From Comamonadaceae bacterium M7527 (lineage in GTDB: Bacteria > Pseudomonadota > Gammaproteobacteria > Burkholderiales > Burkholderiaceae_C), in the NCBI GenBank assembly GCA_021044545.1, contig CP087990.1, positions 2,071,038-2,103,037 on the forward strand: 32,000 nt of DNA. The letters are read 5' to 3'. The notes below the pieces were generated by a model. The model searched no databases and was not told the origin of the DNA. It saw only the letters and a program-made list of their open reading frames with translations. How positions within the stretch are numbered: the first letter of the stretch is position 1; each line of letters begins with the position of its first letter. A program made the position numbers and the translations under genes. Below are positions 3,659 through 20,958 of this stretch, piece after piece.

Positions 3659-3734
3659 GGCCCGGTAGCTCAGTTGGTAGAGCAGCGGATTGAAAATCCG
3701 CGTGTCGATGGTTCGATTCCGTCCCAGGCCACCA
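3659..3734 (+). tRNA. tRNA-Phe (anticodon GAA), 76 nt including encoded CCA
   Basis: Cloverleaf folded by hand: acceptor GGCCCGG/CCAGGCC (one C-A mismatch at 5:68), D arm GCTC-AGTTGGTA-GAGC, anticodon arm GCGGA-TTGAAAA-TCCGC, variable loop GTGTC, T arm GATGG-TTCGATT-CCGTC, then ACCA. Very similar to E. coli tRNA-Phe. Confidence 0.93.
3690..3734 (+). repeat. attL: 45-bp core repeat (anticodon loop to CCA of tRNA-Phe)
   Basis: The exact 45-mer ttgaaaatccgcgtgtcgatggttcgattccgtcccaggccacca recurs at 12610..12654 and 21528..21572. Identity stops exactly at the base 5' of ttgaaaa. Confidence 0.9.
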
Positions 3735-3740
3735 AATACT

Positions 3741-3775
3741 CACCGTAGTCTTGCAAAAGGCTACGGTGTTTTTGT
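3741..3775 (+). terminator. Island-borne rho-independent terminator directly after the reconstituted tRNA-Phe
   Basis: Stem caccgtagtc / ggctacggtg (8 Watson-Crick pairs, one G-U, one more pair), loop ttgcaaaa, followed by ttttt. Confidence 0.7.
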
Positions 3776-3812
3776 TTGTGCATCTCATTCTGCTAGTGCT
3801 GTGCAGTAGACG

Positions 3813-5021
3813 ATGCACAAGCTAGCCAACACTCACCATTGCACACCAACCACCACCATTCGCTTGCGTGACGGTGAGCTAGTCATTTACAAACGCAGCC
3901 GCAGCTTGCAGTACCAATGTCGCTACAAGCTAAGCGACGGCACTTGGACAAGAGCTAGCACTGGCAAAGCAGCTCTGGAGCACGCCATTGCTCGCGCATG
4001 TGATATCTACGATGAATCACGCTATCGACAGCGTCTTGGTTTAGCACACCGTGCACACTCTGTTGCACAGATTGCAGCTGTTTGCTGTGCTGAGCTACGG
4101 CAGCAGATAGATGCAAAAGGCAAGAAGACTGCGCTCAACGACTACTTGAGCATCATCGAGCGTTACTTTGTGCCTTACTTTGGCGAACGCTTGCTTGAAT
4201 CATTGACGCACACAGACATACGTGAGTTTGAGCTGTGGCGCGATAGGCCGCTGTCTAGAGCTCCAAAGACAAGCACGCTCAACAATTTCACAAGTGCTTG
4301 GAGCAGATTGACTGCAGTAGCTGTAGAGCGAGGCTACATCAGTGAGCGAGTACCACTGCCAAAGCCCACAAGCAAGGGCATGAAGGGCACTACACGAGCA
4401 GCATTCAGCGGCGACGAGATGACTGCACTGCTAGCGTTTATGGAGCAGTGGTGCAAGCAAGGTGTCAAAGCTGTTCAGCGTGAAATTCGCCCTTTGCTGC
4501 GCGACTATGTAGAGCTGCTGCTGTTTACTGGCATGAGGCACGGCACAGAGGCGATGAACATACGTTGGCGCGACATAGAGTGGCACACAAAGGATGGTGT
4601 GCGCTACTTGCGCATACACGTGAGTGGCAAAACTGGCAGCAGATGGTTGATTGCCAAACACGCAGCCGTCCATGCGCTGCAACGGCTGCACGCTAGACAA
4701 AGGGATGTTTGTGAGATGTCGTTTGAAACCCTGTTTGCAGCGCGAGTGCAACAACTGCTGTTCAGATACAGCGATGGACATCAGCCACACAGCTTGGTTG
4801 GCACGTTTCGCAAGCTGATGCGTGACAGTGGCATGCTCAAGAACACACAAGGGCAGAGTCGCACGCTGTACTCAATACGCCATACCTACGCCACGCTTGC
4901 ACTGTTGGAGGGTAGTGCAGACATACACACACTCAGCAAGCAGCTTGGCAACAGTGCAGCGATGATTGAGAGGCACTACAGCAAGCTCACAGCGACTATG
5001 GCAGCTGAGAAGTTGGCTTGA
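3813..5021 (+). CDS. Tyrosine recombinase / integrase, 402 aa (allele 1)
   Basis: Catalytic signature: Arg in LFTGMRHGTE, H-x-x-R in SIRHTYATLAL, Tyr in MIERHYSKL. Position is immediately next to the tRNA att site. Confidence 0.9.
   Translation: MHKLANTHHCTPTTTIRLRDGELVIYKRSRSLQYQCRYKLSDGTWTRASTGKAALEHAIARACDIYDESRYRQRLGLAHRAHSVAQIAAVCCAELRQQIDAKGKKTALNDYLSIIERYFVPYFGERLLESLTHTDIREFELWRDRPLSRAPKTSTLNNFTSAWSRLTAVAVERGYISERVPLPKPTSKGMKGTTRAAFSGDEMTALLAFMEQWCKQGVKAVQREIRPLLRDYVELLLFTGMRHGTEAMNIRWRDIEWHTKDGVRYLRIHVSGKTGSRWLIAKHAAVHALQRLHARQRDVCEMSFETLFAARVQQLLFRYSDGHQPHSLVGTFRKLMRDSGMLKNTQGQSRTLYSIRHTYATLALLEGSADIHTLSKQLGNSAAMIERHYSKLTATMAAEKLA
4717..4731 (+). promoter_or_regulatory. Motif site M5 (degenerate): tgtcgtttgaaaccc, inside int
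   Basis: 13/15 match to M1. Confidence 0.3.
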
Positions 5022-5024
5022 AGC

Positions 5025-5040
5025 TGTCGTTTAAAACCAC
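5025..5040 (+). promoter_or_regulatory. Motif site M1: tgtcgtttaaaaccac (TGTCGTTTNAAACSAC family)
   Basis: The 17-mer ctgtcgtttaaaaccac is identical at 5024..5040 and 7409..7425. Lies between the stop codons of int and the wHTH gene. Confidence 0.6.
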
Positions 5041-5044
5041 AACT

Positions 5045-5362
5045 CTAAGACGATCCTTCAAGCTGCTTCAAGTACTGGCGCACTTGGATAACACCGCGTT
5101 TGCTCAGACAGTAGTACTTCGCACGCTTGTCATGTCCATGTTGACGCTCTATGAGCTCAAGGCGCTCCAAGCGTTCCACGCTTCGCTTGAGTGTTGGCAA
5201 GGATGATTGGCACATCACATTTAAAGACTTGAGCATGAGCGCAGACGGATGAACGCGAAACAGTTCAAGCAGAACTGTTAACTCGTCACGTCTACTGACT
5301 GCCAAAACGCTTCGTTCAAACGATTGCGCTGACAAAACTCTTGCAGCTGTCTCAAAAAACAT
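5045..5362 (-). CDS. Small winged-helix (MarR/ArsR-like) DNA-binding protein, 105 aa
   Basis: LPTLKRSVERLERLELIERQHGHDKRAKYYCLSKRG looks like a recognition helix plus wing. Convergent with int and divergent from the micropeptide/Wzz-like operon across an AT-rich spacer. Confidence 0.6.
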   Translation of the reverse strand: MFFETAARVLSAQSFERSVLAVSRRDELTVLLELFRVHPSALMLKSLNVMCQSSLPTLKRSVERLERLELIERQHGHDKRAKYYCLSKRGVIQVRQYLKQLEGSS

Positions 5363-5542
5363 GCTGCGATGATGCAGTCATTTCATGGTCAAAGTAAAAA
5401 CTAAATGCAAAAACAGTATTTCAATAAAAAACAAAACGTTAAAAGATTTTTATGCTGATACATCACTGTTTTCGGCGCTAAATATTGCTAGACGCTATGT
5501 TTACGAGCTTACGCTAGGCGCTGTTTTTAGAACGACTTAGCA

Positions 5543-5656
5543 ATGAAAAAAATCAAATTTACCTTTGGAGCAAAGCTCGCTCTTGTGTCTGCTGTTGTTG
5601 GTTTTGGTGCCTCAGTGTTCTTTCTAATAAAAGAGATCACTAGAGGTATGGCATGA
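5543..5656 (+). CDS. 37-aa single-pass membrane micropeptide (MKKIKFTFGAKLALVSAVVGFGASVFFLIKEITRGMA), below the ORF-track size cut-off
   Basis: Translated by hand. Basic N-terminus, roughly 20-residue hydrophobic helix, short polar tail. Its TGA overlaps the ATG of the 514-aa gene (ATGA at 5653..5656). No clear SD, but the upstream region is AT-rich. Confidence 0.5.
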   Translation: MKKIKFTFGAKLALVSAVVGFGASVFFLIKEITRGMA

Positions 5657-7197
5657 ACGAGCAGCGATTTGAGTCTTCAGACGAAATTGATCTAGGTAGG
5701 TTCTTTACTAACCTTTGGAGTAAACGGCTAGTCGTTGTTGTGTTTGTGGTTCTTGGCTTTGCTGTTGGTGGTGTGCAAGGACTCTTTTCGCAAGCAAGCT
5801 CATTCACCAACACGGTTGCTACTGTGCATGTCAAGCTGAACTTCAAAGGTGCAGAGCTTGGCGAGTATCCAAACGGCTCCAAGTACGCACCAACAGATGT
5901 GATTGCGAGCAAAGTGCTCTCAAGGGTGTATCGAGCAAACAGCCTGGATGACTACGACATTGAGTTGGAGGAGTTTGTATCTGCAGTCAACGCTTATCCG
6001 TGGATACCTAACCAAGCTGCAATGGACGCTAAGTACGCGGATCTTTTTAGTGAAAAAAAGCTAAGCGCACTTGATCGTCAAAAATTGGATGAGCAGTATC
6101 AACAAGAAACACGAAACAGCAATGGCAGATTTTTGATGCTGCAGTGGAGTGGAGACTCAGCTGCAAAAGTGTCCAAAGCGGTTGCACAGAAAGTGTTGGC
6201 AGATATTCCTAAGCAGTGGGCTTCTGTGAGTATTCAAGAGTACGGCGTGTTGGATCTTGAGGTTGTAGTGCCAAGCAAGTTGGATCAGTATCTACTTGAT
6301 ACTGCTGAGTACATCGTCGTTGGTGACTACCTACGCGACTTTGCGAGACAATTAAAAGTGGCTGCACTTGCGTTACAGCAAGATGCTGTCGTAGCAGTTT
6401 TAAAAGACGAACAAACTCAAAGCACAGTTGGTGATGTTGGCAAGCTCATACTGAACTTAGAAAACTTTCACTTGAGTACGCTGCAGCGAACGTTCCTCAT
6501 TGCGCCGCCACGATCTAACGCTGAGGCGGCAAGTTTGTACTTGAGCAGTCGACAACGAGAGTTAGAAGAAAAAATTGCAGAAGCCGAGCGCAAGTCTGAC
6601 GTGATCAATCGCGTCTACCGCGAGTACACGGACAGTGCTGAGACGAAGTCGGCGAGTACTCAAAATGCTGCAGACAAAAATGGCAATTTATCGCCTCAAA
6701 TTGGCGACGACTTCTTGACAAAACTTATGCGTATTGGCGACGAACTATCTGATGCGAAGTACAAGCAAGACTTGCTGAAGGAGCGCAAAGAGTTGTCTTT
6801 TGAAGCCGCTGAGCTTGCAACTGAAAAGCAGCGTATTGAAGCTATTGTTGATGCATTGAGCCAGCCGCGCAGCGTGCAAGTTATCAGTAATCGTGAGGCA
6901 CTAGACAAGAGCGTTAGCTACGTGGTGTCTGAGCTCTCAAACTATGCACAGACATTGGACAGAATCAATCTTATGGCACGTGCTGCAAAGCTAGGGAAAG
7001 TTGGCTCGTTGTACGAAGTCATCAGAGCGCCACAAGTGAGCAGTAGCAGCGTTGATGCGCTAAAAGCTGCGGTGAAGAATGCGTTGTTTGGTTTGCTTGG
7101 TGGTTTGTTTCTTGGAATATTCGTAGCGTTTATTCGCGTTGTGTTGCAAGAGGCACGCTCGCCAAAGTCGTCATCAAACCATGTCGTTGCTGTGTAG
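5653..7197 (+). CDS. Wzz / polysaccharide co-polymerase (PCP)-like two-TM protein with a long coiled-coil periplasmic domain, 514 aa
   Basis: N-terminus SSDEIDLGRFFTNLWSKRLVVVVFVVLGFAVGG matches the classic Wzz N-terminal motif plus TM1. C-terminal APQVSSSS...ALFGLLGGLFLGIFVAFIRVVL is a Pro/Ser segment plus Gly-rich TM2. The region between them is rich in E/K/Q heptad-like sequence. AGAGG lies 6 nt before the ATG. Confidence 0.7.
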   Translation: MNEQRFESSDEIDLGRFFTNLWSKRLVVVVFVVLGFAVGGVQGLFSQASSFTNTVATVHVKLNFKGAELGEYPNGSKYAPTDVIASKVLSRVYRANSLDDYDIELEEFVSAVNAYPWIPNQAAMDAKYADLFSEKKLSALDRQKLDEQYQQETRNSNGRFLMLQWSGDSAAKVSKAVAQKVLADIPKQWASVSIQEYGVLDLEVVVPSKLDQYLLDTAEYIVVGDYLRDFARQLKVAALALQQDAVVAVLKDEQTQSTVGDVGKLILNLENFHLSTLQRTFLIAPPRSNAEAASLYLSSRQRELEEKIAEAERKSDVINRVYREYTDSAETKSASTQNAADKNGNLSPQIGDDFLTKLMRIGDELSDAKYKQDLLKERKELSFEAAELATEKQRIEAIVDALSQPRSVQVISNREALDKSVSYVVSELSNYAQTLDRINLMARAAKLGKVGSLYEVIRAPQVSSSSVDALKAAVKNALFGLLGGLFLGIFVAFIRVVLQEARSPKSSSNHVVAV

Positions 7198-7214
7198 CGT
7201 GCCAAAGTCCAAAT

Positions 7215-7248
7215 AAAAAGCCACTAGTGTTGAGCTAGTGGCTTTTTT
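7215..7248. terminator. Bidirectional rho-independent terminator between the convergent Wzz-like and AAA+ genes
   Basis: aaaaagccactag - tgttgag - ctagtggcttttt: a 13-bp perfect stem with A-run and T-run flanks. Confidence 0.8.
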
Positions 7249-7263
7249 GTTGTCTGACTAGGA

Positions 7264-7971
7264 CTACTTGCTAGCAGCTTGTTTGATGCTGTTGAGTGCT
7301 GCTCTCGCAGCTGCATTGCCGCGCTGCACTTTTAGCATCAAACGCTGCAAGCTGAACATCACATTCCTAAACGAGCCATTGTTGCCACTGATGGCAGCTA
7401 ACAGTTGACTGTCGTTTAAAACCACTTCTGCATCGCTTGCCATGCGTCGAGCGATTGGCAAAAACTCAGCATCTGCTGCTGCGTTCATCTCTATCAACAC
7501 GCATCTATCCTTCAAACCCTTGTCTAACGCTGCGATGTTGTTGGTGGTGAGGATGAACACAGCACGCTTGTTGTTGAGCACTGTTTTCATGCTGCCTTGT
7601 GCGAGCTTGCTCAAGTTATCCACCTCATCAAAAATCAAGTAGTGCAAACCACTCGCATTCAAAGATTGCACGTTCATCATCTTTTTCACAGACTCCATAA
7701 TCGTCGTGTTTGTATGCCCTTGCTGACAGCCAAAAAACTCAGCCTCCATTGCCAACGTGTCTTGTGTCTTGCCAAATTCGATAGCAGAAGGTAGCAAGCG
7801 TGCAAGCGTTGTCTTACCACTGCCAAATGTGCCATACAGCAAAATGCCACTCTTGCCTTCGTATGGAAAAGGTAAGCTGCCACTGACAATGTCTTCAATC
7901 AGTTCGCGTGATTCGTCGTTTCCAAAGACAATTTCGTCGATGGTGGTAGGGGTATATTCAAATTTGTTCAT
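7264..7971 (-). CDS. Clamp-loader (RFC small subunit / T4 gp44 / RarA)-like AAA+ ATPase, 235 aa, lacking most of a collar domain
   Basis: YTPTTIDEIVFGNDESRELIEDIV, then Walker A LLYGTFGSGKTTLARLL, Walker B YLIFDEVDNLSKLAQ, sensor-1 FILTTNN, and KDRCVLIEM in the position of the RFC SRC arginine-finger motif. Collinear by eye with T4 gp44. Confidence 0.75.
   Translation of the reverse strand: MNKFEYTPTTIDEIVFGNDESRELIEDIVSGSLPFPYEGKSGILLYGTFGSGKTTLARLLPSAIEFGKTQDTLAMEAEFFGCQQGHTNTTIMESVKKMMNVQSLNASGLHYLIFDEVDNLSKLAQGSMKTVLNNKRAVFILTTNNIAALDKGLKDRCVLIEMNAAADAEFLPIARRMASDAEVVLNDSQLLAAISGNNGSFRNVMFSLQRLMLKVQRGNAAARAALNSIKQAASK
7410..7425 (+). promoter_or_regulatory. Motif site M2: tgtcgtttaaaaccac, inside the AAA+ gene
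   Basis: Exact 17-nt match with M1. Confidence 0.6.
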
Positions 7972-8009
7972 GTTTGTCTTTCGTTTGTTGATTTGTTGGT
8001 TGGTTATGT

Positions 8010-8735
8010 TTAAGCTGCTAGCTTGAAAGCTTCAGCGTTTTCGCTGTACATCGACAGCAGTGCAGCGTTCAGTGCAGTCGCTGAGCGAACGATTGACTTG
8101 ATTGCAAAGCTGCCATCTGCTTGCTGCTCTGCAATCAGCACACACTCTTCGCCAACATAGTTGCTGTCGCTCATTTCACTCAGCTGTTTAGAGCTAACGC
8201 TTCCAAGTATTGGCATGCTTGAGATATGTTCTTGCATCATTTCTGCTTTGATTTTTGGACTGATGTACGTGGCACTCTTTGACAAGCGAACTTCTTGTAT
8301 GCCACCACGCTGTTCAATCCAATCTGCCAAAGCACTTGGCAATACACCTTCCTTCTGTGCACTTCGCAGCACAAGCGAGTACGTGCTAACACGTCGTCTG
8401 TCTACATCGCCAAATACTGCTTTAACGATACGTGTCATCAGTGGACTTTCACGTTTAACGACTAGCTTGCGTTCCTTTAAAAACGCTTGCAGTTCATTGG
8501 CACGCTGCTTCGCAGCAGACACCTCCAAAGGAGCTCCATAAGACAAGCAGTCAGCAAGTACGCTATACAGCTGTTGGTTGCTTGTGCGAAAAGCGTTGTT
8601 TTGCCATTGCGTGCGTTTGTTCTCCATTGCTTGCAGTGAAGCTGCAGCTGTCATGTCAAATGCTGCCTCATTGGTAGCTGTTGCTGAAGTGTGTGTGTCG
8701 TTTGAAACGACAGCTGATTTGGTGGTAACTTGCAT
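8010..8735 (-). CDS. Unknown 241-aa protein, first gene of the operon with the AAA+ ATPase
   Basis: Long ORF with protein-like composition. ATG at 8735 is preceded by GGAG with a 6-nt spacing (the ORF-track start at 8747 is a TTG). There is a 38-nt gap to the ATPase gene. I recognise no family. Confidence 0.65.
   Translation of the reverse strand: MQVTTKSAVVSNDTHTSATATNEAAFDMTAAASLQAMENKRTQWQNNAFRTSNQQLYSVLADCLSYGAPLEVSAAKQRANELQAFLKERKLVVKRESPLMTRIVKAVFGDVDRRRVSTYSLVLRSAQKEGVLPSALADWIEQRGGIQEVRLSKSATYISPKIKAEMMQEHISSMPILGSVSSKQLSEMSDSNYVGEECVLIAEQQADGSFAIKSIVRSATALNAALLSMYSENAEAFKLAA
8696..8712. promoter_or_regulatory. Motif site M4: tgtcgtttgaaacgaca, a perfect 8+1+8 palindrome near the 5' end of the 241-aa gene
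   Basis: Read directly from the sequence. Sits 24-40 nt inside the ORF from the ATG at 8735. Confidence 0.6.
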
Positions 8736-8836
8736 AAAAATCTCCAAAATATCGTGTAAAAAATTATCGTTTGCATTATTGCTTGCGATGTAATAATTAT
8801 ATTAAAATCAACGTTTTACAGCCATAAACGTCTTAC

Positions 8837-9613
8837 GTGCTAGTATTAGATGTTAAGAATATGAGAAGATATTTTTCAGCACCAACTCCACGCTTTGGTA
8901 AGCAAAGCAGTCGTTTGTCGATTGGTAATCAGCAGCGCAGCCCTTACTATTGGTGGTGGCAGTACTTGCGTCGTAACGCTGACTACATAGCGTGCTGTGA
9001 GCGTGGTGGCAAAGGTAAGCTTGCAAAGCTCTACGCTGACTTTGGTGACGTTCGAAACGACAACTTCCACGAGTGGTGGACAAGTAACGATAGGGGAGTA
9101 ACGCTATTCGCTGAGCAACATTTGGCAGTGCGTTTTGGCGAGTTGGCAAGCGCTGAGCAGTGGCAAGCTAGTTGGCACGCTGATGATGTGCTTGTGGTGG
9201 CTGTACCTTTGGAGATGAGCAAGCGTTCTATCAAGTCTGCGTTCGGCAAGCTATTAGATAAACGACACACAGACGTTAAACGTGGACGTCCATCTATTGC
9301 AAAGCTGAAAGAACACAGTACTGCTCTATATGCGCTAGAGCGCAACTACACCATTAATGGTTTGCAAAACACATTGGCTGTTTATGACTTGTGGATAGAC
9401 AATCAAGCACGCAGCAAAGCAGATAAATTGGCACTGTGGCAAATAGCTGCAGAGCTGAAGCTAAACAGAGCTGCAATCAAAGACGCGACGAGTGACGATA
9501 GTGGCGATAGATTGAGTGGACGTAACACGCTTGGGGCTACTGTGCACCGCTATGTCACGCAAGCCAAGCGCATCATTGGCAATACAGCAAAGGGCAAGTT
9601 CCCCTTGTCGTAG
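8837..9613 (+). CDS. 258-aa protein with W-rich xxLRRNxxY motif (transcriptional-regulator-like domain, DUF6499/FseA-like); true start may be the ATG at 8861
   Basis: RSPYYWWWQYLRRNADYIACCE resembles the W-x-EFLRRNP-x-Y signature of the N-terminal domain of FseA-type ICE activators (from memory). Divergent from the 241-aa/AAA+ operon across an AT-rich spacer. The 8837 start is a GTG. Confidence 0.55.
   Translation: MLVLDVKNMRRYFSAPTPRFGKQSSRLSIGNQQRSPYYWWWQYLRRNADYIACCERGGKGKLAKLYADFGDVRNDNFHEWWTSNDRGVTLFAEQHLAVRFGELASAEQWQASWHADDVLVVAVPLEMSKRSIKSAFGKLLDKRHTDVKRGRPSIAKLKEHSTALYALERNYTINGLQNTLAVYDLWIDNQARSKADKLALWQIAAELKLNRAAIKDATSDDSGDRLSGRNTLGATVHRYVTQAKRIIGNTAKGKFPLS
9046..9062. promoter_or_regulatory. 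Motif site M7: tgacgttcgaaacgaca (15/17 match to M4), inside the 258-aa gene
   Basis: Read directly from the sequence. Confidence 0.4.
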
Positions 9614-9616
9614 CTG

Positions 9617-9632
9617 TGTCGTTTTAAACCAC
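9617..9632 (+). promoter_or_regulatory. Motif site M3: tgtcgttttaaaccac, between the 258-aa gene stop and the short recombinase stop
   Basis: 15/16 identical to M1/M2. Lies 3 nt from the recombinase gene's 3' end. Confidence 0.55.
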
Positions 9633-9634
9633 GC

Positions 9635-10207
9635 TCAAACCAACTCGACAGCTCTGCGCTTCACATCATCATTGACAGTGATGTAACGCTGTGTGGTTGC
9701 AATGCTCTTGTGACCAGCAAGTGAAGCAAGCACAAACACGCTGACACCTTGACTTGCGAGTGACGTTAAAAACGTCTTGCGTCCACTGTGACTGCTTGCA
9801 CCTTTGATGCCAGCAGCTTTGAACAACCAGTAAAAGTGCTGTGACAGCACGTTGGCGCTGAATCCCTTGCGTGCACCACTGTAAGTTGTGAACAGTGCTT
9901 GCTCCTCCTCGTACCACTTGCGCGAGTTGATGTAGCACTGCAGTTCCTCTTGCAGTCGTGTGCTCACATACACAGTGCGTGCATGGTTGTGTTTGACGCG
10001 GTGAGCACCTAGATATATTTCTGCTCGAACCGTGCCGTTCGCATCGCGTACATCACACAGCTTCAAGTCTGCCACCTCGCTCACACGCAAACCACTCATC
10101 ACCATCATCAACAGCATCGCTCTATCGCGTGCTGCAAACTTGCGTGTGCTGATGTAGTCGAGTGTGTGCGCAAGTTCCGCGCTGGTTAGTGATTTAGCTG
10201 CAGCCAT
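9635..10207 (-). CDS. Short (190 aa) catalytic-domain-only tyrosine recombinase, FimB/FimE-sized
   Basis: Arg in MSGLRVSEVADL, H-x-x-R in SSHSGRKTFLT, H..Y in LAGHKSIATTQRYITV. GAGGAA SD lies 6 nt before the ATG. Confidence 0.8.
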   Translation of the reverse strand: MAAAKSLTSAELAHTLDYISTRKFAARDRAMLLMMVMSGLRVSEVADLKLCDVRDANGTVRAEIYLGAHRVKHNHARTVYVSTRLQEELQCYINSRKWYEEEQALFTTYSGARKGFSANVLSQHFYWLFKAAGIKGASSHSGRKTFLTSLASQGVSVFVLASLAGHKSIATTQRYITVNDDVKRRAVELV

Positions 10208-10617
10208 TTGTGTTCCTCAAAGATTTTCAGTGTTGTTAGTGTGTTTTCATTGCCAGTGTTTGAGCAACCAAGTCCGTTCAATTTGGCGGTGCTTTGATGA
10301 GTTGTAGGTTTTCAACGCACTAGCACTTGGTTCACGAACTTTGTGTGTTCTCTTTGGCTGTGTATTTAGCTGAACGCTGCTGCGCTCTGCAAGCGTTTTG
10401 ATATATGTGCTGCTGCTCAGCTCTTCATGCACCTCTTTTATGCGCTTAGACGAAGGATTTGACGTGTTTGCGTGTTGTGCTCGCTGTGCTCACAAATTCA
10501 TCTGCAGCTCAAATATTTCTGCTGCGCAAAAAGTTGCGGTGAAGTACTTACAGAAGTGAGGTGGTGATTTGCACTCGGTGCTGTTTGTGAAGTGCTTACA
10601 CTTCATTGGCAAGTAAG

Positions 10618-10635
10618 AGCAAGCAGCTGCTTGCT
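10618..10635. repeat. 18-bp perfect palindrome AGCAAGCAGCTGCTTGCT in the low-coding region
   Basis: Read directly from the sequence. Overlaps a second palindrome, TGCTAGCA. Preceded by the hairpin gaagtg-ctta-cacttc (10589..10604) and the direct repeat gaagtacttaca / gaagtgcttaca (10541 and 10589). Confidence 0.7.
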
Positions 10636-11001
10636 AGCAGTTCGCTCGTCGCTCTCTGCTGTGCTCTTCTGTCTTTTGACATGACTGTTTTGGAAATGTT
10701 TCGAGCAAACGACGGCTATGTCGCACAGTGTGCGAACAGTAGCTGTCGTTGTAGTCTGTTCCGTATAAAGTCCGTCGCAGTACAAGCATGAGTGAGTTTG
10801 ACGGAAGACGTATGTATTAAAACTTCCAAACTGCTTCAGCATTGGTTTGCTTTGCAGATACTCAGCGGCACTCTCGTTCTACACAGCCTTCATGCCAACT
10901 GTGTAGTGATTGCAAAGTCATTAGCCGTCATATTTCCCTTTGCGTTTTTAGCCTTTGATAGCGCAGTGCTTTATCTGCGTGGTGTTGCCTTGGTGTTTGC
11001 C

Positions 11002-11355
11002 TTAGTGTTTGTTCTGTCTGTGCTGCCTGAACAATCGCTTGTTAGCTCGTGTGCAGATGTTGAGCACTTGGTAGGCACGCTTGTCGCTCAGTCGCGCTCG
11101 TTTGCGTTTGTTCTGGATGCACTTGAGGTAGTCGCCGAGTACCGTAGCTTGCTTACTGTCTATAAGCTCAAGCTGCGCATGCTCTGCGTGAATGCCAAGT
11201 GTTCGCTTCGCAGCTGCTTGTGCTTTAAGGAGTAGTGCGTCTGTCGTTGCAAACGTCGCTGCAGCTAAGCCTCTTTGCTTTAGCCACGCATCAGTTGCTT
11301 CAGTGTCACGCAATGCACTTACTCGAATTTGATATTGCTGTTCTTGTTTGTTCAT
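11002..11355 (-). CDS. Possible ribbon-helix-helix-like small DNA-binding protein, 117 aa from the second ATG
   Basis: YQIRVSALRDTEATDAWLKQRGLAAATFATTDALLLKA has a strand-helix-helix pattern, followed by a basic C-terminus. Composition is far more protein-like than the antisense 147-aa ORF. No clear SD. Confidence 0.4.
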   Translation of the reverse strand: MNKQEQQYQIRVSALRDTEATDAWLKQRGLAAATFATTDALLLKAQAAAKRTLGIHAEHAQLELIDSKQATVLGDYLKCIQNKRKRARLSDKRAYQVLNICTRANKRLFRQHRQNKH

Positions 11356-11420
11356 GCAAGTATTTAGCATCTGCCAAACAAAACCTTGGCGAAACTGAAG
11401 CGTTGTTTGGCAATAAGTGC

Positions 11421-11440
11421 TGCAGTGCAGTGCAGTGCAT
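11421..11440. repeat. Pentanucleotide tract (TGCAG)x3 plus TGCAT, flanked by the inverted repeat aagtgc / gcactt (11415..11451)
   Basis: Read directly from the sequence. Lies in the divergent spacer between the RHH-like gene and the 146-aa gene. Confidence 0.7.
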
Positions 11441-11536
11441 GTGTGGCACTTTGACGCTCATCGCCTTTTTCGGTTGCTCAAGTTGTGGTGGTGACAACAC
11501 ACTAGCTGTATTGCAACTGCATAGGAACACAGCAAC

Positions 11537-11977
11537 ATGACAGCAACACTTGGCACTCTAAAGCTCACAGCAGCACAAAAGCCCTCGCACGTAACTCCAA
11601 TACAGCAGCGACGCAACAAACTGGCGAAGCGTTTGTTCGAGCAAGCTGAGTTGGCGAAAGCCCAACAACTCGGCTCAACATACAAACCAATCAAGTTCAA
11701 GACTGTTACGGACGCAGATGGTATGCGAAAGCAAGTGGAGCAGTACAAGACAGTGAAGGCGTGGTGGTTTACGGCAGACAACGGTAAGTTGGCACTGAGC
11801 GTGCGCTACGGTACAAAAGTGCTTGAGCTAGCAAAAGGCAGGTGGAGCGTTGAGGTAGCAAGCACACAAGAGCTTGTGCCAACGTTAGAGCTGATTAAAG
11901 CTGCGGTGCTAAACGGTGAGCTAGATGCTGCAATCGATGTTGCATCAGACAAATTGAAGCTTGGCTTTAAGCGTTGA
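11537..11977 (+). CDS. Hypothetical 146-aa protein
   Basis: Clean ORF with AGGAA 9 nt upstream of the ATG and balanced composition. No family recognised. Confidence 0.6.
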   Translation: MTATLGTLKLTAAQKPSHVTPIQQRRNKLAKRLFEQAELAKAQQLGSTYKPIKFKTVTDADGMRKQVEQYKTVKAWWFTADNGKLALSVRYGTKVLELAKGRWSVEVASTQELVPTLELIKAAVLNGELDAAIDVASDKLKLGFKR

Positions 11978-12038
11978 TGCAAGCGATGCAATCAAAGTCG
12001 CTCTGTAGATTGTCTTGTGCTGCGTTGATAAATACTCC

Positions 12039-12365
12039 ATGCAGTACAAGGAATTCAAAACGACATCACAGAGCGCAGCGCAATCAAAGCCAGCTTCGTC
12101 TAGCAGTGATGCTGCCAGCAACACAAAGCAAGGCAGCAAGCAGCGTGCAGCCAAGCGTGCACGCACTACTGCAAAGACACAAACGCTTGCGCAGATGCGC
12201 ATTCAGCATTTGCAAGACAAAGTCAAACACGCAAAGGCTGAGCTTGCGGCAGAGATTGCAGCGCAGCGTTTGGCGCTATCCAACAAGCAGCGTGAGCAAA
12301 AGCGTAGAGCACTACAGAGGCAGAGTCTGCAAGCTGTACAAGCTGCGAAGCGTGAGCAAGACTAA
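12039..12365 (+). CDS. Basic Lys/Gln/Ala-rich coiled-coil protein, 108 aa from the ATG at 12039
   Basis: QRAAKRARTTAKTQTLAQMRIQHLQDKVKHAKAELAAEIAAQRLALSNKQREQKRRALQRQ. It is the last gene before the att junction. Unit 2 has a 2-bp deletion that removes only the last 4 codons. Confidence 0.5.
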   Translation: MQYKEFKTTSQSAAQSKPASSSSDAASNTKQGSKQRAAKRARTTAKTQTLAQMRIQHLQDKVKHAKAELAAEIAAQRLALSNKQREQKRRALQRQSLQAVQAAKREQD

Positions 12366-12609
12366 GTGTCTTTCAAAACGTCACTTGCACAACCGTAGCA
12401 AAACCGCTGATAGCTGCACAGTTACGCTCAAGCAGCTTGTGCAGCTTAGACACGCTAGTGCAGTGCTGAGAGGCATAGTGCAAATGGTGCGAGCGCAGCA
12501 GCAGTGTGCTAAATGTTTTGTAGAAAAAACGTTGCAGAATTTCGCACACCAATCTGTTCCAAAGCAAAATCCAGTTGAAAAATTTAACTCTTTCGCACTC
12601 TTGTCAGCG

Positions 12610-12654
12610 TTGAAAATCCGCGTGTCGATGGTTCGATTCCGTCCCAGGCCACCA
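12610..12654 (+). repeat. Internal att (attP-like junction): 45-bp partial tRNA-Phe 3' copy between the two units
   Basis: Exact copy of 3690..3734. It lacks the 5' 31 nt of the tRNA, so it is not a functional tRNA gene. Confidence 0.9.
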
Positions 12655-12660
12655 AATATT

Positions 12661-12695
12661 CACCGTAGTCTTGCAAAAGACTACGGTGTTTTTGT
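12661..12695 (+). terminator. Copy of the island-borne terminator; the G-U pair of unit 1 is an A-U pair here
   Basis: caccgtagtc ttgcaaaa gactacggtg ttttt. Confidence 0.65.
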
Positions 12696-12732
12696 TTGTG
12701 CATCTCATTCTGCTAGTGCTGCGCAGTAGACG

Positions 12733-13941
12733 ATGCACAAGCTAGCCAACACTCACCACTGCACACTAACCACCACCATTCGCTTGCGTGATGGTGAGCT
12801 TGTCATCTACAAACGCAGCCGCAGCTTGCAGTACCAATGTCGCTACAAGCTAAGCGACGGAACTTGGACAAGAGCTAGCACTGGCAAAGCAGCTCTAGAA
12901 CATGCCATTGCTCGCGCATGTGATATCTACGATGAATCACGCTATCGACAGCGTCTTGGTTTAGCACACCGTGCACACTCTGTTGCACAGATTGCAGCTG
13001 TTTGCTGTGCTGAGCTGCGGCAGCAGATAGACGCAAAAGGCAAGAAGACTGCGCTCAACGATTACTTGAGCATCATCGAGCGCTACTTTGTGCCGTACTT
13101 TGGCGAACGCTTGTTTGAATCATTGACGCACACAGACATACGCGAGTTTGAGCTGTGGCGAGATAGACGGCTGTCTAGGGCACCAAAGACAAGCACGCTC
13201 AACACTTTCACAAGTGCTTGGAGCAGATTGACTGCAACAGCTGTAGAGCGTGGCTACATCAGTGAGCGAGTACCACTGCCAAAACTCACAAGCAAGGGCA
13301 TGAAGGGCACTACACGAGCAGCATTCAGTGGCGACGAGATGACGGCACTGCTGGCGTTTATGGAGCAGTGGTGCACACAAGGTGTCAAAGCCGTAGAGCG
13401 TGAAATTCGCCCTTTGCTGCGTGACTACGTGGAGCTGCTGCTTTTTACTGGCATGAGGCACGGCACAGAGGCGATGAACATACGTTGGCGCGACATAGAG
13501 TGGCACACAAAGGATGGTGTGCGTTACTTGCGCATACACGTGAGTGGCAAAACTGGCAGCAGATGGTTGATTGCCAAACACGCAGCCGTCCATGCGCTGC
13601 AACGGCTGCACGCTAGACAAAGGGATGTTTGTGAGATGTCGTTTGAAACCCTGTTTGCAGCGCGAGTGCAACAACTGCTGTTCAGATACAGCGATGGACA
13701 TCAGCCACACAGCTTGGTTGGCACGTTTCGCAAGCTGATGCGTGACAGTGGCATGCTCAAGAACACACAAGGGCAGAGTCGCACGCTGTACTCAATACGC
13801 CATACCTACGCCACGCTTGCACTGTTGGAGGGTAGTGCAGACATACACACACTCAGCAAGCAGCTTGGCAACAGTGCAGCGATGATTGAGAGGCACTACA
13901 GCAAGCTCACAGCGACTATGGCAGCTGAGAAGTTGGCTTGA
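12733..13941 (+). CDS. Tyrosine recombinase / integrase, 402 aa (allele 2; 8 amino-acid differences from allele 1, all in the first 221 residues)
   Basis: Same catalytic motifs as allele 1. Differences read from the ORF track: P11L, L128F, P145R, N157T, V168T, P184L, K214T, Q221E. Confidence 0.9.
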   Translation: MHKLANTHHCTLTTTIRLRDGELVIYKRSRSLQYQCRYKLSDGTWTRASTGKAALEHAIARACDIYDESRYRQRLGLAHRAHSVAQIAAVCCAELRQQIDAKGKKTALNDYLSIIERYFVPYFGERLFESLTHTDIREFELWRDRRLSRAPKTSTLNTFTSAWSRLTATAVERGYISERVPLPKLTSKGMKGTTRAAFSGDEMTALLAFMEQWCTQGVKAVEREIRPLLRDYVELLLFTGMRHGTEAMNIRWRDIEWHTKDGVRYLRIHVSGKTGSRWLIAKHAAVHALQRLHARQRDVCEMSFETLFAARVQQLLFRYSDGHQPHSLVGTFRKLMRDSGMLKNTQGQSRTLYSIRHTYATLALLEGSADIHTLSKQLGNSAAMIERHYSKLTATMAAEKLA

Positions 13942-13964
13942 AGCTGTCGTTTAAAACCACAACT

Positions 13965-14282
13965 CTAAGACGATCCTTCAAGCTGCTTCAAGTACTGGCG
14001 CACTTGGATAACACCGCGTTTGCTCAGACAGTAGTACTTCGCACGCTTGTCATGTCCATGTTGACGCTCTATGAGCTCAAGGCGCTCCAAGCGTTCCACG
14101 CTTCGCTTGAGTGTTGGCAAGGATGATTGGCACATCACATTTAAAGACTTGAGCATGAGCGCAGACGGATGAACGCGAAACAGTTCAAGCAGAACTGTTA
14201 ACTCGTCACGTCTACTGACTGCCAAAACGCTTCGTTCAAACGATTGCGCTGACAAAACTCTTGCAGCTGTCTCAAAAAACAT
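13965..14282 (-). CDS. Small winged-helix DNA-binding protein (copy 2)
   Basis: Identical translation to 5045..5362. Confidence 0.6.
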   Translation of the reverse strand: MFFETAARVLSAQSFERSVLAVSRRDELTVLLELFRVHPSALMLKSLNVMCQSSLPTLKRSVERLERLELIERQHGHDKRAKYYCLSKRGVIQVRQYLKQLEGSS

Positions 14283-14462
14283 GCTGCGATGATGCAGTCA
14301 TTTCATGGTCAAAGTAAAAACTAAATGCAAAAACAGTATTTCAATAAAAAACAAAACGTTAAAAGATTTTTATGCTGATACATCACTGTTTTCGGCGCTA
14401 AATATTGCTAGACGCTATGTTTACGAGCTTACGCTAGGCGCTGTTTTTAGAACGACTTAGCA

Positions 14463-14576
14463 ATGAAAAAAATCAAATTTACCTTTGGAGCAAAGCTCGC
14501 TCTTGTGTCTGCTGTTGTTGGTTTTGGTGCCTCAGTGTTCTTTCTAATAAAAGAGATCACTAGAGGTATGGCATGA
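14463..14576 (+). CDS. 37-aa membrane micropeptide (copy 2)
   Basis: Identical sequence to 5543..5656. Confidence 0.5.
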   Translation: MKKIKFTFGAKLALVSAVVGFGASVFFLIKEITRGMA

Positions 14577-16117
14577 ACGAGCAGCGATTTGAGTCTTCAG
14601 ACGAAATTGATCTAGGTAGGTTCTTTACTAACCTTTGGAGTAAACGGCTAGTCGTTGTTGTGTTTGTGGTTCTTGGCTTTGCTGTTGGTGGTGTGCAAGG
14701 ACTCTTTTCGCAAGCAAGCTCATTCACCAACACGGTTGCTACTGTGCATGTCAAGCTGAACTTCAAAGGTGCAGAGCTTGGCGAGTATCCAAACGGCTCC
14801 AAGTACGCACCAACAGATGTGATTGCGAGCAAAGTGCTCTCAAGGGTGTATCGAGCAAACAGCCTGGATGACTACGACATTGAGTTGGAGGAGTTTGTAT
14901 CTGCAGTCAACGCTTATCCGTGGATACCTAACCAAGCTGCAATGGACGCTAAGTACGCGGATCTTTTTAGTGAAAAAAAGCTAAGCGCACTTGATCGTCA
15001 AAAATTGGATGAGCAGTATCAACAAGAAACACGAAACAGCAATGGCAGATTTTTGATGCTGCAGTGGAGTGGAGACTCAGCTGCAAAAGTGTCCAAAGCG
15101 GTTGCACAGAAAGTGTTGGCAGATATTCCTAAGCAGTGGGCTTCTGTGAGTATTCAAGAGTACGGCGTGTTGGATCTTGAGGTTGTAGTGCCAAGCAAGT
15201 TGGATCAGTATCTACTTGATACTGCTGAGTACATCGTCGTTGGTGACTACCTACGCGACTTTGCGAGACAATTAAAAGTGGCTGCACTTGCGTTACAGCA
15301 AGATGCTGTCGTAGCAGTTTTAAAAGACGAACAAACTCAAAGCACAGTTGGTGATGTTGGCAAGCTCATACTGAACTTAGAAAACTTTCACTTGAGTACG
15401 CTGCAGCGAACGTTCCTCATTGCGCCGCCACGATCTAACGCTGAGGCGGCAAGTTTGTACTTGAGCAGTCGACAACGAGAGTTAGAAGAAAAAATTGCAG
15501 AAGCCGAGCGCAAGTCTGACGTGATCAATCGCGTCTACCGCGAGTACACGGACAGTGCTGAGACGAAGTCGGCGAGTACTCAAAATGCTGCAGACAAAAA
15601 TGGCAATTTATCGCCTCAAATTGGCGACGACTTCTTGACAAAACTTATGCGTATTGGCGACGAACTATCTGATGCGAAGTACAAGCAAGACTTGCTGAAG
15701 GAGCGCAAAGAGTTGTCTTTTGAAGCCGCTGAGCTTGCAACTGAAAAGCAGCGTATTGAAGCTATTGTTGATGCATTGAGCCAGCCGCGCAGCGTGCAAG
15801 TTATCAGTAATCGTGAGGCACTAGACAAGAGCGTTAGCTACGTGGTGTCTGAGCTCTCAAACTATGCACAGACATTGGACAGAATCAATCTTATGGCACG
15901 TGCTGCAAAGCTAGGGAAAGTTGGCTCGTTGTACGAAGTCATCAGAGCGCCACAAGTGAGCAGTAGCAGCGTTGATGCGCTAAAAGCTGCGGTGAAGAAT
16001 GCGTTGTTTGGTTTGCTTGGTGGTTTGTTTCTTGGAATATTCGTAGCGTTTATTCGCGTTGTGTTGCAAGAGGCACGCTCGCCAAAGTCGTCATCAAACC
16101 ATGTCGTTGCTGTGTAG
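14573..16117 (+). CDS. Wzz/PCP-like two-TM protein (copy 2)
   Basis: Identical translation to 5653..7197. Confidence 0.7.
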   Translation: MNEQRFESSDEIDLGRFFTNLWSKRLVVVVFVVLGFAVGGVQGLFSQASSFTNTVATVHVKLNFKGAELGEYPNGSKYAPTDVIASKVLSRVYRANSLDDYDIELEEFVSAVNAYPWIPNQAAMDAKYADLFSEKKLSALDRQKLDEQYQQETRNSNGRFLMLQWSGDSAAKVSKAVAQKVLADIPKQWASVSIQEYGVLDLEVVVPSKLDQYLLDTAEYIVVGDYLRDFARQLKVAALALQQDAVVAVLKDEQTQSTVGDVGKLILNLENFHLSTLQRTFLIAPPRSNAEAASLYLSSRQRELEEKIAEAERKSDVINRVYREYTDSAETKSASTQNAADKNGNLSPQIGDDFLTKLMRIGDELSDAKYKQDLLKERKELSFEAAELATEKQRIEAIVDALSQPRSVQVISNREALDKSVSYVVSELSNYAQTLDRINLMARAAKLGKVGSLYEVIRAPQVSSSSVDALKAAVKNALFGLLGGLFLGIFVAFIRVVLQEARSPKSSSNHVVAV

Positions 16118-16134
16118 CGTGCCAAAGTCCAAAT

Positions 16135-16168
16135 AAAAAGCCACTAGTGTTGAGCTAGTGGCTTTTTT
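16135..16168. terminator. Bidirectional terminator (copy 2)
   Basis: Identical to 7215..7248. Confidence 0.8.
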
Positions 16169-16183
16169 GTTGTCTGACTAGGA

Positions 16184-16891
16184 CTACTTGCTAGCAGCTT
16201 GTTTGATGCTGTTGAGTGCTGCTCTCGCAGCTGCATTGCCGCGCTGCACTTTTAGCATCAAACGCTGCAAGCTGAACATCACATTCCTAAACGAGCCATT
16301 GTTGCCACTGATGGCAGCTAACAGTTGACTGTCGTTTAAAACCACTTCTGCATCGCTTGCCATGCGTCGAGCGATTGGCAAAAACTCAGCATCTGCTGCT
16401 GCGTTCATCTCTATCAACACGCATCTATCCTTCAAACCCTTGTCTAACGCTGCGATGTTGTTGGTGGTGAGGATGAACACAGCACGCTTGTTGTTGAGCA
16501 CTGTTTTCATGCTGCCTTGTGCGAGCTTGCTCAAGTTATCCACCTCATCAAAAATCAAGTAGTGCAAACCACTCGCATTCAAAGATTGCACGTTCATCAT
16601 CTTTTTCACAGACTCCATAATCGTCGTGTTTGTATGCCCTTGCTGACAGCCAAAAAACTCAGCCTCCATTGCCAACGTGTCTTGTGTCTTGCCAAATTCG
16701 ATAGCAGAAGGTAGCAAGCGTGCAAGCGTTGTCTTACCACTGCCAAATGTGCCATACAGCAAAATGCCACTCTTGCCTTCGTATGGAAAAGGTAAGCTGC
16801 CACTGACAATGTCTTCAATCAGTTCGCGTGATTCGTCGTTTCCAAAGACAATTTCGTCGATGGTGGTAGGGGTATATTCAAATTTGTTCAT
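16184..16891 (-). CDS. Clamp-loader-like AAA+ ATPase (copy 2)
   Basis: Identical translation to 7264..7971. Confidence 0.75.
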   Translation of the reverse strand: MNKFEYTPTTIDEIVFGNDESRELIEDIVSGSLPFPYEGKSGILLYGTFGSGKTTLARLLPSAIEFGKTQDTLAMEAEFFGCQQGHTNTTIMESVKKMMNVQSLNASGLHYLIFDEVDNLSKLAQGSMKTVLNNKRAVFILTTNNIAALDKGLKDRCVLIEMNAAADAEFLPIARRMASDAEVVLNDSQLLAAISGNNGSFRNVMFSLQRLMLKVQRGNAAARAALNSIKQAASK

Positions 16892-16929
16892 GTTTGTCTT
16901 TCGTTTGTTGATTTGTTGGTTGGTTATGT

Positions 16930-17655
16930 TTAAGCTGCTAGCTTGAAAGCTTCAGCGTTTTCGCTGTACATCGACAGCAGTGCAGCGTTCAGTGCAGTCG
17001 CTGAGCGAACGATTGACTTGATTGCAAAGCTGCCATCTGCTTGCTGCTCTGCAATCAGCACACACTCTTCGCCAACATAGTTGCTGTCGCTCATTTCACT
17101 CAGCTGTTTAGAGCTAACGCTTCCAAGTATTGGCATGCTTGAGATATGTTCTTGCATCATTTCTGCTTTGATTTTTGGACTGATGTACGTGGCACTCTTT
17201 GACAAGCGAACTTCTTGTATGCCACCACGCTGTTCAATCCAATCTGCCAAAGCACTTGGCAATACACCTTCCTTCTGTGCACTTCGCAGCACAAGCGAGT
17301 ACGTGCTAACACGTCGTCTGTCTACATCGCCAAATACTGCTTTAACGATACGTGTCATCAGTGGACTTTCACGTTTAACGACTAGCTTGCGTTCCTTTAA
17401 AAACGCTTGCAGTTCATTGGCACGCTGCTTCGCAGCAGACACCTCCAAAGGAGCTCCATAAGACAAGCAGTCAGCAAGTACGCTATACAGCTGTTGGTTG
17501 CTTGTGCGAAAAGCGTTGTTTTGCCATTGCGTGCGTTTGTTCTCCATTGCTTGCAGTGAAGCTGCAGCTGTCATGTCAAATGCTGCCTCATTGGTAGCTG
17601 TTGCTGAAGTGTGTGTGTCGTTTGAAACGACAGCTGATTTGGTGGTAACTTGCAT
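16930..17655 (-). CDS. Unknown 241-aa protein (copy 2)
   Basis: Identical translation to 8010..8735. Confidence 0.65.
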   Translation of the reverse strand: MQVTTKSAVVSNDTHTSATATNEAAFDMTAAASLQAMENKRTQWQNNAFRTSNQQLYSVLADCLSYGAPLEVSAAKQRANELQAFLKERKLVVKRESPLMTRIVKAVFGDVDRRRVSTYSLVLRSAQKEGVLPSALADWIEQRGGIQEVRLSKSATYISPKIKAEMMQEHISSMPILGSVSSKQLSEMSDSNYVGEECVLIAEQQADGSFAIKSIVRSATALNAALLSMYSENAEAFKLAA

Positions 17656-17756
17656 AAAAATCTCCAAAATATCGTGTAAAAAATTATCGTTTGCATTATT
17701 GCTTGCGATGTAATAATTATATTAAAATCAACGTTTTACAGCCATAAACGTCTTAC

Positions 17757-18533
17757 GTGCTAGTATTAGATGTTAAGAATATGAGAAGATATTTTTCAGC
17801 ACCAACTCCACGCTTTGGTAAGCAAAGCAGTCGTTTGTCGATTGGTAATCAGCAGCGCAGCCCTTACTATTGGTGGTGGCAGTACTTGCGTCGTAACGCT
17901 GACTACATAGCGTGCTGTGAGCGTGGTGGCAAAGGTAAGCTTGCAAAGCTCTACGCTGACTTTGGTGACGTTCGAAACGACAACTTCCACGAGTGGTGGA
18001 CAAGTAACGATAGGGGAGTAACGCTATTCGCTGAGCAACATTTGGCAGTGCGTTTTGGCGAGTTGGCAAGCGCTGAGCAGTGGCAAGCTAGTTGGCACGC
18101 TGATGATGTGCTTGTGGTGGCTGTACCTTTGGAGATGAGCAAGCGTTCTATCAAGTCTGCGTTCGGCAAGCTATTAGATAAACGACACACAGACGTTAAA
18201 CGTGGACGTCCATCTATTGCAAAGCTGAAAGAACACAGTACTGCTCTATATGCGCTAGAGCGCAACTACACCATTAATGGTTTGCAAAACACATTGGCTG
18301 TTTATGACTTGTGGATAGACAATCAAGCACGCAGCAAAGCAGATAAATTGGCACTGTGGCAAATAGCTGCAGAGCTGAAGCTAAACAGAGCTGCAATCAA
18401 AGACGCGACGAGTGACGATAGTGGCGATAGATTGAGTGGACGTAACACGCTTGGGGCTACTGTGCACCGCTATGTCACGCAAGCCAAGCGCATCATTGGC
18501 AATACAGCAAAGGGCAAGTTCCCCTTGTCGTAG
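17757..18533 (+). CDS. FseA/DUF6499-like W-rich motif protein (copy 2)
   Basis: Identical translation to 8837..9613. Confidence 0.55.
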   Translation: MLVLDVKNMRRYFSAPTPRFGKQSSRLSIGNQQRSPYYWWWQYLRRNADYIACCERGGKGKLAKLYADFGDVRNDNFHEWWTSNDRGVTLFAEQHLAVRFGELASAEQWQASWHADDVLVVAVPLEMSKRSIKSAFGKLLDKRHTDVKRGRPSIAKLKEHSTALYALERNYTINGLQNTLAVYDLWIDNQARSKADKLALWQIAAELKLNRAAIKDATSDDSGDRLSGRNTLGATVHRYVTQAKRIIGNTAKGKFPLS

Positions 18534-18554
18534 CTGTGTCGTTTTAAACCACGC

Positions 18555-19127
18555 TCAAACCAACTCGACAGCTCTGCGCTTCACATCATCATTGACAGTG
18601 ATGTAACGCTGTGTGGTTGCAATGCTCTTGTGACCAGCAAGTGAAGCAAGCACAAACACGCTGACACCTTGACTTGCGAGTGACGTTAAAAACGTCTTGC
18701 GTCCACTGTGACTGCTTGCACCTTTGATGCCAGCAGCTTTGAACAACCAGTAAAAGTGCTGTGACAGCACGTTGGCGCTGAATCCCTTGCGTGCACCACT
18801 GTAAGTTGTGAACAGTGCTTGCTCCTCCTCGTACCACTTGCGCGAGTTGATGTAGCACTGCAGTTCCTCTTGCAGTCGTGTGCTCACATACACAGTGCGT
18901 GCATGGTTGTGTTTGACGCGGTGAGCACCTAGATATATTTCTGCTCGAACCGTGCCGTTCGCATCGCGTACATCACACAGCTTCAAGTCTGCCACCTCGC
19001 TCACACGCAAACCACTCATCACCATCATCAACAGCATCGCTCTATCGCGTGCTGCAAACTTGCGTGTGCTGATGTAGTCGAGTGTGTGCGCAAGTTCCGC
19101 GCTGGTTAGTGATTTAGCTGCAGCCAT
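18555..19127 (-). CDS. Short tyrosine recombinase (copy 2)
   Basis: Identical translation to 9635..10207. Confidence 0.8.
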   Translation of the reverse strand: MAAAKSLTSAELAHTLDYISTRKFAARDRAMLLMMVMSGLRVSEVADLKLCDVRDANGTVRAEIYLGAHRVKHNHARTVYVSTRLQEELQCYINSRKWYEEEQALFTTYSGARKGFSANVLSQHFYWLFKAAGIKGASSHSGRKTFLTSLASQGVSVFVLASLAGHKSIATTQRYITVNDDVKRRAVELV

Positions 19128-20275: not shown

Positions 20276-20456
20276 GCAAGTATTTAGCATCTGCCAAACA
20301 AAACCTTGGCGAAACTGAAGCGTTGTTTGGCAATAAGTGCTGCAGTGCAGTGCAGTGCATGTGTGGCACTTTGACGCTCATCGCCTTTTTCGGTTGCTCA
20401 AGTTGTGGTGGTGACAACACACTAGCTGTATTGCAACTGCATAGGAACACAGCAAC

Positions 20457-20897: not shown

Positions 20898-20958
20898 TGC
20901 AAGCGATGCAATCAAAGTCGCTCTGTAGATTGTCTTGTGCTGCGTTGATAAATACTCC

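Follow-up and report, generated by a model that had tools for sequence, protein, structure and literature searches.

In the stretch of DNA analysed here (32,000 bp of contig CP087990.1 from Comamonadaceae bacterium M7527, called the window), two units of about 8.9 kb stand side by side at a tRNA-Phe gene. They are the same almost throughout, but in the part next to the attachment site they carry two distinct versions of the integrase gene int. How did two copies of one element come to differ in this one place only? We compared the two units with each other and with 81 related loci (L001–L081), most of which come from Limnohabitans and other Burkholderiales, and from metagenomes.

Results

Layout of the array

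At this locus, two copies of a single 8.9-kb integrative island, with tRNA-Phe as its target, are arranged head to tail. The order is tRNA/attL, unit 1, att, unit 2 and attR (Table 1). An intact tRNA-Phe is found at one end, and its 3' part is directly repeated at the other, as is the case for tRNA islands. The 45-bp att is present as exact copies at 3690, 12610 and 21528 and nowhere else in the window (chance expectation 0). The GC content of the unit is 0.48 compared to 0.58–0.59 in the flanks, which is the foreign composition expected of an island. A tyrosine recombinase with the catalytic motifs R242, K273, R356 and Y389 lies next to att, again as in known islands.

Each unit supplies a terminator-like hairpin. 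The copy in unit 2 (12661–12688) has a perfect 12-bp stem, and the substitution at 3760 gives a G-U pair in copy 1. The host's own tRNA terminator hairpin is located downstream of attR, at about 21577–21611. The left flank encodes NtrY and NtrX, and the right flank encodes phospholipase A1 (PLA1), a UvrD-family helicase, PriA, HemE and DsbD. The gene order NtrY, NtrX, tRNA-Phe ... PLA1, UvrD, PriA, HemE is kept in a related genome (L007). Between attR and the PLA1 gene there is a remnant of a YhaV-family toxin gene (PF11663, E = 4e-50; 21641–22048, minus strand). The remnant has no N-terminus, contains an in-frame stop at 21926–21928 and is absent at the matching place in L007.

Table 1. Features of the tandem island in the window (positions in bp from the first letter of the window).
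Feature	Position	Strand	Description
tRNA-Phe(GAA)	3659–3734	+	Intact, integration target; ARAGORN; Rfam RF00005, 67 bits
attL	3690–3734	+	3' 45 nt of tRNA-Phe, from the anticodon loop to CCA; start of the repeat
Unit 1	3690–12609	+	8,920 bp: att, int, variable cargo, backbone (small recombinase, DUF6641, p116)
Divergent tract, copy 1	3739–4604	+	att–int spacer and int codons 1–264; 43 substitutions against 12659–13524
Hairpin and T run	3741–3768	+	Terminator-like, element-supplied, directly after the restored tRNA
int allele 1	3813–5021	+	402-aa tyrosine recombinase, UFS56095.1; Arg242, Lys273, Arg356, Tyr389
Difference-free block	4605–12350	+	Equals 13525–21270; from the 3' 417 bp of int through most of p116
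Winged-helix (wHTH) regulator	5045–5362	minus	
514-aa membrane protein	5653–7197		
Clamp-loader-like AAA+ ATPase	7264–7971	minus	235 aa
p245	8010–8747	minus	245 aa, no assigned function
p258	8837–9613		258 aa, no assigned function
190-aa tyrosine recombinase	9635–10207 (and 18555–19127)	minus	Catalytic domain only
p122	11002–11370	minus	
DUF6641	11537–11977		
p116	12015–12365	+	116 aa in unit 1; 112 aa in unit 2 (20935–21273)
Middle att	12610–12654	+	45-bp copy of the tRNA 3' part at the unit 1/unit 2 junction
Unit 2	12610–21527	+	8,918 bp
Divergent tract, copy 2	12659–13524	+	
int allele 2	12733–13941	+	Open 402-codon ORF
attR	21528–21572	+	Third 45-bp copy

Differences between the two units

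The units were compared without gaps at an offset of 8920, and at an offset of 8918 past a single indel. At the offset of 8920, identity is at chance level up to 3689, rises to 92–99% per 100 bp over 3701–4700 and is 100% to 12300. Unit 1 and unit 2 differ by 43 substitutions, all of them within 3739–4604, and there are zero differences between 4605–12350 and 13525–21270. The remaining difference is one 2-bp indel (CG at 12351–12352, missing from unit 2 after 21270), past which the identity is unbroken up to 12655/21573. An earlier note on this DNA had given the same count, the same first and last substitutions and the same uninterrupted identity from 4605 to the indel, and the exact comparison agrees with it on each of these. 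The differences are not evenly spread along the unit. If 43 differences were placed uniformly, they would all fall in 866 of the 8,661 bp with a probability of 4e-41. At the rate seen in the tract, the final 417 bp of int would be free of differences with a probability of 7e-10.

The two units share a very recent common ancestor, since 7,746 bp are free of substitutions; either the element was duplicated or it integrated twice. The att-adjacent 0.87 kb of one copy, whichever of the two it is, has a different ancestry and represents an allele of the same integrase family that is about 5% diverged.

The indel alters the end of p116. L010 carries the undeleted 116-aa state, and the deletion in unit 2 is therefore either derived or a sequencing error. 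The 258 bp from the indel to att are identical in both units, where about 10 differences would be expected of a 5% diverged patch that reached the indel. Thus, the patch probably stops short of the indel, which we take to be an independent event.

Gene content of the element

No genes for a relaxase, a coupling protein or type IV secretion were found in the ten ORFs using Pfam, NCBIfam and PHROGs. The AAA+ protein gave a match to TrwB_AAD_bind (20.8 bits with a cut-off of 20.5; E = 2e-4), which we read as P-loop noise and rejected, as no matched stretch passed on its own. Matches to phage families are limited to the integrase, the clamp-loader-like AAA+ protein and two families of unknown function. 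There was no DNA match among 50,697 phage records, and the plasmid records searched gave a single trivial match. The gene content does not correspond to that of an ICE, a phage satellite (PICI or P4-like) or a prophage. PADLOC recognised no known defence system in the cargo and gave only weak AAA matches on the 235-aa ATPase (best E = 2e-5, TRIP13). The 514-aa protein has no relative in IMG/VR. The DUF6641 model has a pLDDT of 68 with no fold match in the PDB, and DUF6641 is not mentioned in the literature searched.

The 190-aa recombinase is the most widely retained backbone gene after int (about 30 loci), and the protein is 67–70% identical in most relatives. A putative role in the resolution of dimers or arrays is one possibility. 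The DNA at 10616–11064 is about 73% identical in L003 and L006, and the small ORFs p79, p147 and p122 are poorly conserved as proteins. This stretch could serve as an origin, as a transfer origin or in regulation. Many family members conserve the 250 bp on the left side of att, where arm sites may be located. A 251-codon ORF (11974–12729), which begins at the right end of unit 1, crosses att and stops 3 bp short of the int start, is probably not a gene. Compared to L010, the substitutions fall at its second codon positions, which are third positions of the overlapping p116 frame, and its matches elsewhere are mostly conserved att DNA.

The island family and its site

The related loci share a common plan: tRNA-Phe, int, variable cargo, the 190-aa recombinase, DUF6641 and att, with a size of about 6.5–10 kb. 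The family members have the same att and backbone, and their int proteins are 67–97% identical to those in the window. No empty tRNA-Phe site was found, and a family int follows the whole tRNA-Phe in 13 of the 13 distinct related loci that could be read. The site is occupied in L007 and eleven others, and probably in L012, whose contig ends about 180 bp past the tRNA; the short readable stretch is similar to the beginning of a family island. In L053, L055 and L063, integrases with about 68% identity to those in the window adjoin tRNA-Lys instead, which looks like a change of target within the family. A family island at tRNA-Phe is also present in L006 (CALQKH020000010.1), a contig labelled as an Akkermansia muciniphila MAG that is probably in the wrong bin.

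Arrays of unlike members anchored at the tRNA are seen in L003 (an isolate genome) and L044. Contigs that join unlike members are L014, L025 and probably L034. Junctions in which DUF6641 is followed by a partial att and int are present in L010, L046, L064 and L070, and the contigs of L010, L046 and L064 could be circles or arrays. Where the DNA upstream of a family int gene can be read, a partial att, and not the whole tRNA-Phe, precedes the gene in about half of the cases (L027, L032, L052, L058, L061 and L062, and the junction contigs L010, L014, L025, L046, L064 and L070); arrays or circular forms are therefore very common. The upstream element has no family backbone genes in L052, L061 and L062.

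We compared five other arrays and found no near-identical units and no exchanged or homogenised tracts in them. The int genes of those arrays are only 66–79% identical and are probably too diverged for recombination. Near-identical units were found only in the array of the window. The searches gave no genome of the same species; L012 and L007 have the nearest host flanks, with identities of 91.6% and 87–88%, respectively.

The two int alleles

Both copies of int encode a full-length integrase. GenBank lists copy 2 as a 291-aa protein (UFS56105.1, residues 112–402), but the full 402-codon ORF is open and conserved, and the shorter call is only a different choice of start codon. The integrase matches phrog_1 (integrase, E = 4e-31) and a XerA-type NCBIfam model over residues 105–392. 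PF00589 is on record for its relatives, and Pfam gives only a weak SAM-like match on the protein in the window itself. No PDB chain matches it in sequence. A 32-mer that is invariant in five int alleles had no match in the JGI metagenomes.

Three of the substitutions (3739, 3760 and 3802) are intergenic and lie in the att–int spacer. The other 40 are in int nucleotides 27–792 (codons 9–264), and 31 of them are at third codon positions. The exact alignment gave a dN/dS of 0.08 (Nei–Gojobori) and a dS of 0.19 in codons 1–264, with a binomial P of 6e-13 for the synonymous excess. Eight residues differ (12, 128, 146, 158, 169, 185, 215 and 222). The earlier note had the right number of amino acid changes, but its range of 11–221 was off by one.

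At 19 of the 43 sites, both states are found in independent public alleles (n=3). When two further alleles are included, long stretches of allele 2 are seen to recur in related loci. L080 differs from it at one of 78 sites over 3735–3812 and at eight of 400 over 4001–4400, and L007 at three of 204 over 4401–4604. Since both states recur in this way, the variants are real alleles and not noise. Taken together, the sequence data point to two intact int copies that are under purifying selection, which bears out the proposal that the mostly synonymous pattern reflects functional alleles rather than sequencing noise.

A recombination boundary inside int

The substitution at 4604 is isolated: it lies 81 bp after the one at 4523 and is private to copy 2. 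The maximum chi-square breakpoint is therefore at 4523, and the exchange point is placed between 4524 and just past 4604. The junction is located between the catalytic residues Arg242 and Lys273.

The 3' part of int is not intrinsically invariant, as it differs by 4–7% from the window in other alleles. Beyond 4604 there are 42 polymorphic sites among five alleles, and the two copies in the window agree at all 42. Upstream of 4604, they disagree at 43 of the 102 polymorphic sites. By our own arithmetic, agreement at all 42 by chance has a probability of 0.58^42, or about 1e-10. The public int alleles of this tRNA-Phe island family are about 5% apart and strongly mosaic. The five int alleles have 43 informative sites with 508 incompatible site pairs and an Rmin of 16; exchange within int is therefore routine in the family. 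With this mosaic pool behind it, the suggestion that the sharp switch to identity marks a recombination boundary within int holds. The narrower suggestion, that only the arm-binding and core-binding part had been swapped, is slightly imprecise: all eight residue changes end at 222, but the tract itself passes Arg242 and continues to codon 264, before Lys273.

L007, L009 and L010 carry the three closest alleles that extend as far as the int stop codon. Their similarity to the window breaks off there, to within a few bp, and each has different cargo beyond this point. In L014–L022, it extends from int into shared cargo. In the comparisons with L007, L009 and L010, int behaves as a module with att and its own stop codon as limits. 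The 514-aa cargo is also present, at about 90% identity, on eight contigs (L015–L022) that come from several metagenomes. Each of these begins inside the 3' third of int (4540–4976), and seven of the eight cease to resemble the window at 7365, within the AAA+ gene (L022 earlier, at 7243). Such ends are the pattern expected if assembly graphs branch where the int 5' parts or the cargo differ.

Discussion

Proposed origin of the chimeric integrase gene

We favour a very recent duplication of a single element together with one homologous exchange with a diverged int allele, and give this reading a probability of roughly 0.6. RecA-type homologous recombination between int genes would have joined the two ancestries. 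One end of the exchange would be the junction inside int, and the other would lie either at att or in the host DNA on its left, which is present only once and so offers no comparison. At the start, a relative would already have occupied the tRNA-Phe site, as in all 13 readable related loci. A new element would then integrate beside the resident to give an array, followed by a crossover between the resident int and the incoming int, by a conversion patch, or by imported DNA that spans the tRNA, leaving a chimeric int in one copy.

There are two routes by which this could proceed. In route (a), the new element integrates twice beyond the resident, and a crossover between the int genes deletes the body of the resident. 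In route (b), a dimer of the element receives a conversion patch, the donor being a related circle or imported chromosomal DNA that spans the tRNA. Taken jointly, the two routes make an exchange in the lineage's own array somewhat more probable than all other readings combined. A patch or import onto an existing dimer would account for the larger share of this, and a deletion between the resident and incoming int genes for a somewhat smaller one. The favoured reading calls for at least three events in a time too short for one substitution in 7.7 kb, which counts against it, as do the arrays of unlike members elsewhere, in which no exchanged tracts are apparent. The window is compatible with an exchange in this genome or before the second integration, and with the chimera in either copy.

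The most serious competitor, to which we give less than half the weight of the favoured reading, moves the exchange to another cell (route (c)). Two variants of the element, alike in all but the patch around attP and of which the hybrid had been made earlier elsewhere, would have entered the site sequentially, through Int-mediated integration or because a circle recombined with a resident copy in a Campbell-type homologous crossover. No recombination in this genome would have generated the hybrid. Family members readily stack at this att, and alleles and cargo are reshuffled across samples. Furthermore, on a circular map the indel and the int tract flank attP, so that circles differing in one region would fit. 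However, this sequence of events requires that an element in which no transfer or packaging genes were detected moved horizontally one more time, and this move must fit into the time that left 7.7 kb without a substitution. The identity of the 258 bp between the indel and att also speaks against a single 5% diverged region that includes the indel, as about 10 differences are predicted there. A further alternative would start from two related elements in tandem, about 5% diverged along their whole length, homogenised from int codon 265 to the right end by a single conversion tract of at least 7.7 kb. Conversion can act on tandem direct repeats and would leave a single sharp boundary. The tract would, however, be about 8 kb and would have to end at or near the unit boundary. 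Moreover, close int alleles elsewhere carry different cargo and not 5% diverged versions of it, the nearest relatives of the window's cargo are 88–91% identical, and a homogenised tract is seen in zero of the five other arrays. We regard it as improbable and as the least economical of the three scenarios in the earlier note.

The remaining explanations take the difference to be either an error or a local accident. An exact repeat of 8.9 kb is hard to assemble, the sole indel is of an error type seen in long reads, and the annotation of the two int copies in GenBank differs. On this view, an assembly or consensus error would have made a tandem out of a single integrated copy together with a circle or a second subpopulation. 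A duplication error would give identical copies or scattered errors, and not 43 mostly synonymous natural polymorphisms in one block. Even then, both alleles must physically exist in the culture, and arrays of this family are present in independent assemblies. We consider such an artefact slightly less probable still than long-tract homogenisation. Mutation in place, by targeted hypermutation or by relaxed constraint on the int 5' part after duplication, would explain why the differences are limited to one segment. It is at odds with the low dN/dS, with the presence of both states at 19 of the 43 sites in unrelated samples and with the recurrence of allele 2 stretches in L080 and L007. We rejected it on the shared polymorphisms and give it hardly any weight.

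What the locus may tell

The window provides a clean natural snapshot of how a small integrative island diversifies, with a step from 5% divergence to full identity within the integrase gene. It also offers a concrete chimera, in which one allele contributes the N-terminal, core-binding and early catalytic parts and another allele the remainder, and which could be used to test which parts of an integrase must co-evolve with the arm sites. The island family itself, with int, the 190-aa recombinase and DUF6641, is widespread and has no match in the annotated phage and plasmid records searched. As a more tentative and doubtful generalisation for these small tRNA-Phe islands of freshwater-type Comamonadaceae, stacking may be normal at an att that is nearly always occupied, and the shared int may serve as portable homology that reshuffles the cargo and the N-terminal DNA-binding half. 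The chimera in the window would then be seen essentially at birth, with zero substitutions since. This generalisation could also account for the partial att, in place of the whole tRNA, before about half of the int genes.

Comparison with known systems

Repeated integration of the same or a sibling element into head-to-tail copies is known for multiple lysogens and for CTXphi/RS1. The head-to-tail copies at one site are alike, but those elements are phages that carry structural or replication genes, with CTXphi relying on XerCD, whereas no phage genes or phage DNA similarity were found for the islands in the window. Tandem or accreted tRNA islands are known from pheV/pheU in enterobacteria and from island-mapping surveys. 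The window shares with them the intact tRNA at one end, the 3' fragment at every junction and the integrase beside att. The reported tandem arrays usually consist of unlike islands, whereas the array described here is a dimer of near-identical units, with differences confined to the 5' two-thirds of int (plus the spacer and the indel).

The closest parallel is the SXT/R391 family, in which related elements lie head to tail at one att, and homologous recombination gives hybrids and mosaic genomes. The same arrangement, with a boundary between two ancestries, is present in the window. For SXT/R391, recA-dependent formation of hybrids between tandem elements at one att has been shown experimentally (PMC2786100), and it also depends on the elements' own Bet/Exo genes (PMC2786100; Garriss, Waldor, Burrus 2009). 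Those elements are conjugative, roughly 100 kb in size, integrate in prfC and carry Bet/Exo. The islands in the window measure 8.9 kb, are located at tRNA-Phe and have no detected conjugation or recombination genes, and the junction lies inside the integrase gene itself. The event belongs to a type already known, comparable to the SXT/R391 hybrids, and reveals no new mechanism. If the more tentative generalisation above holds, the array in the window would be a non-conjugative counterpart to SXT/R391 hybrid formation.
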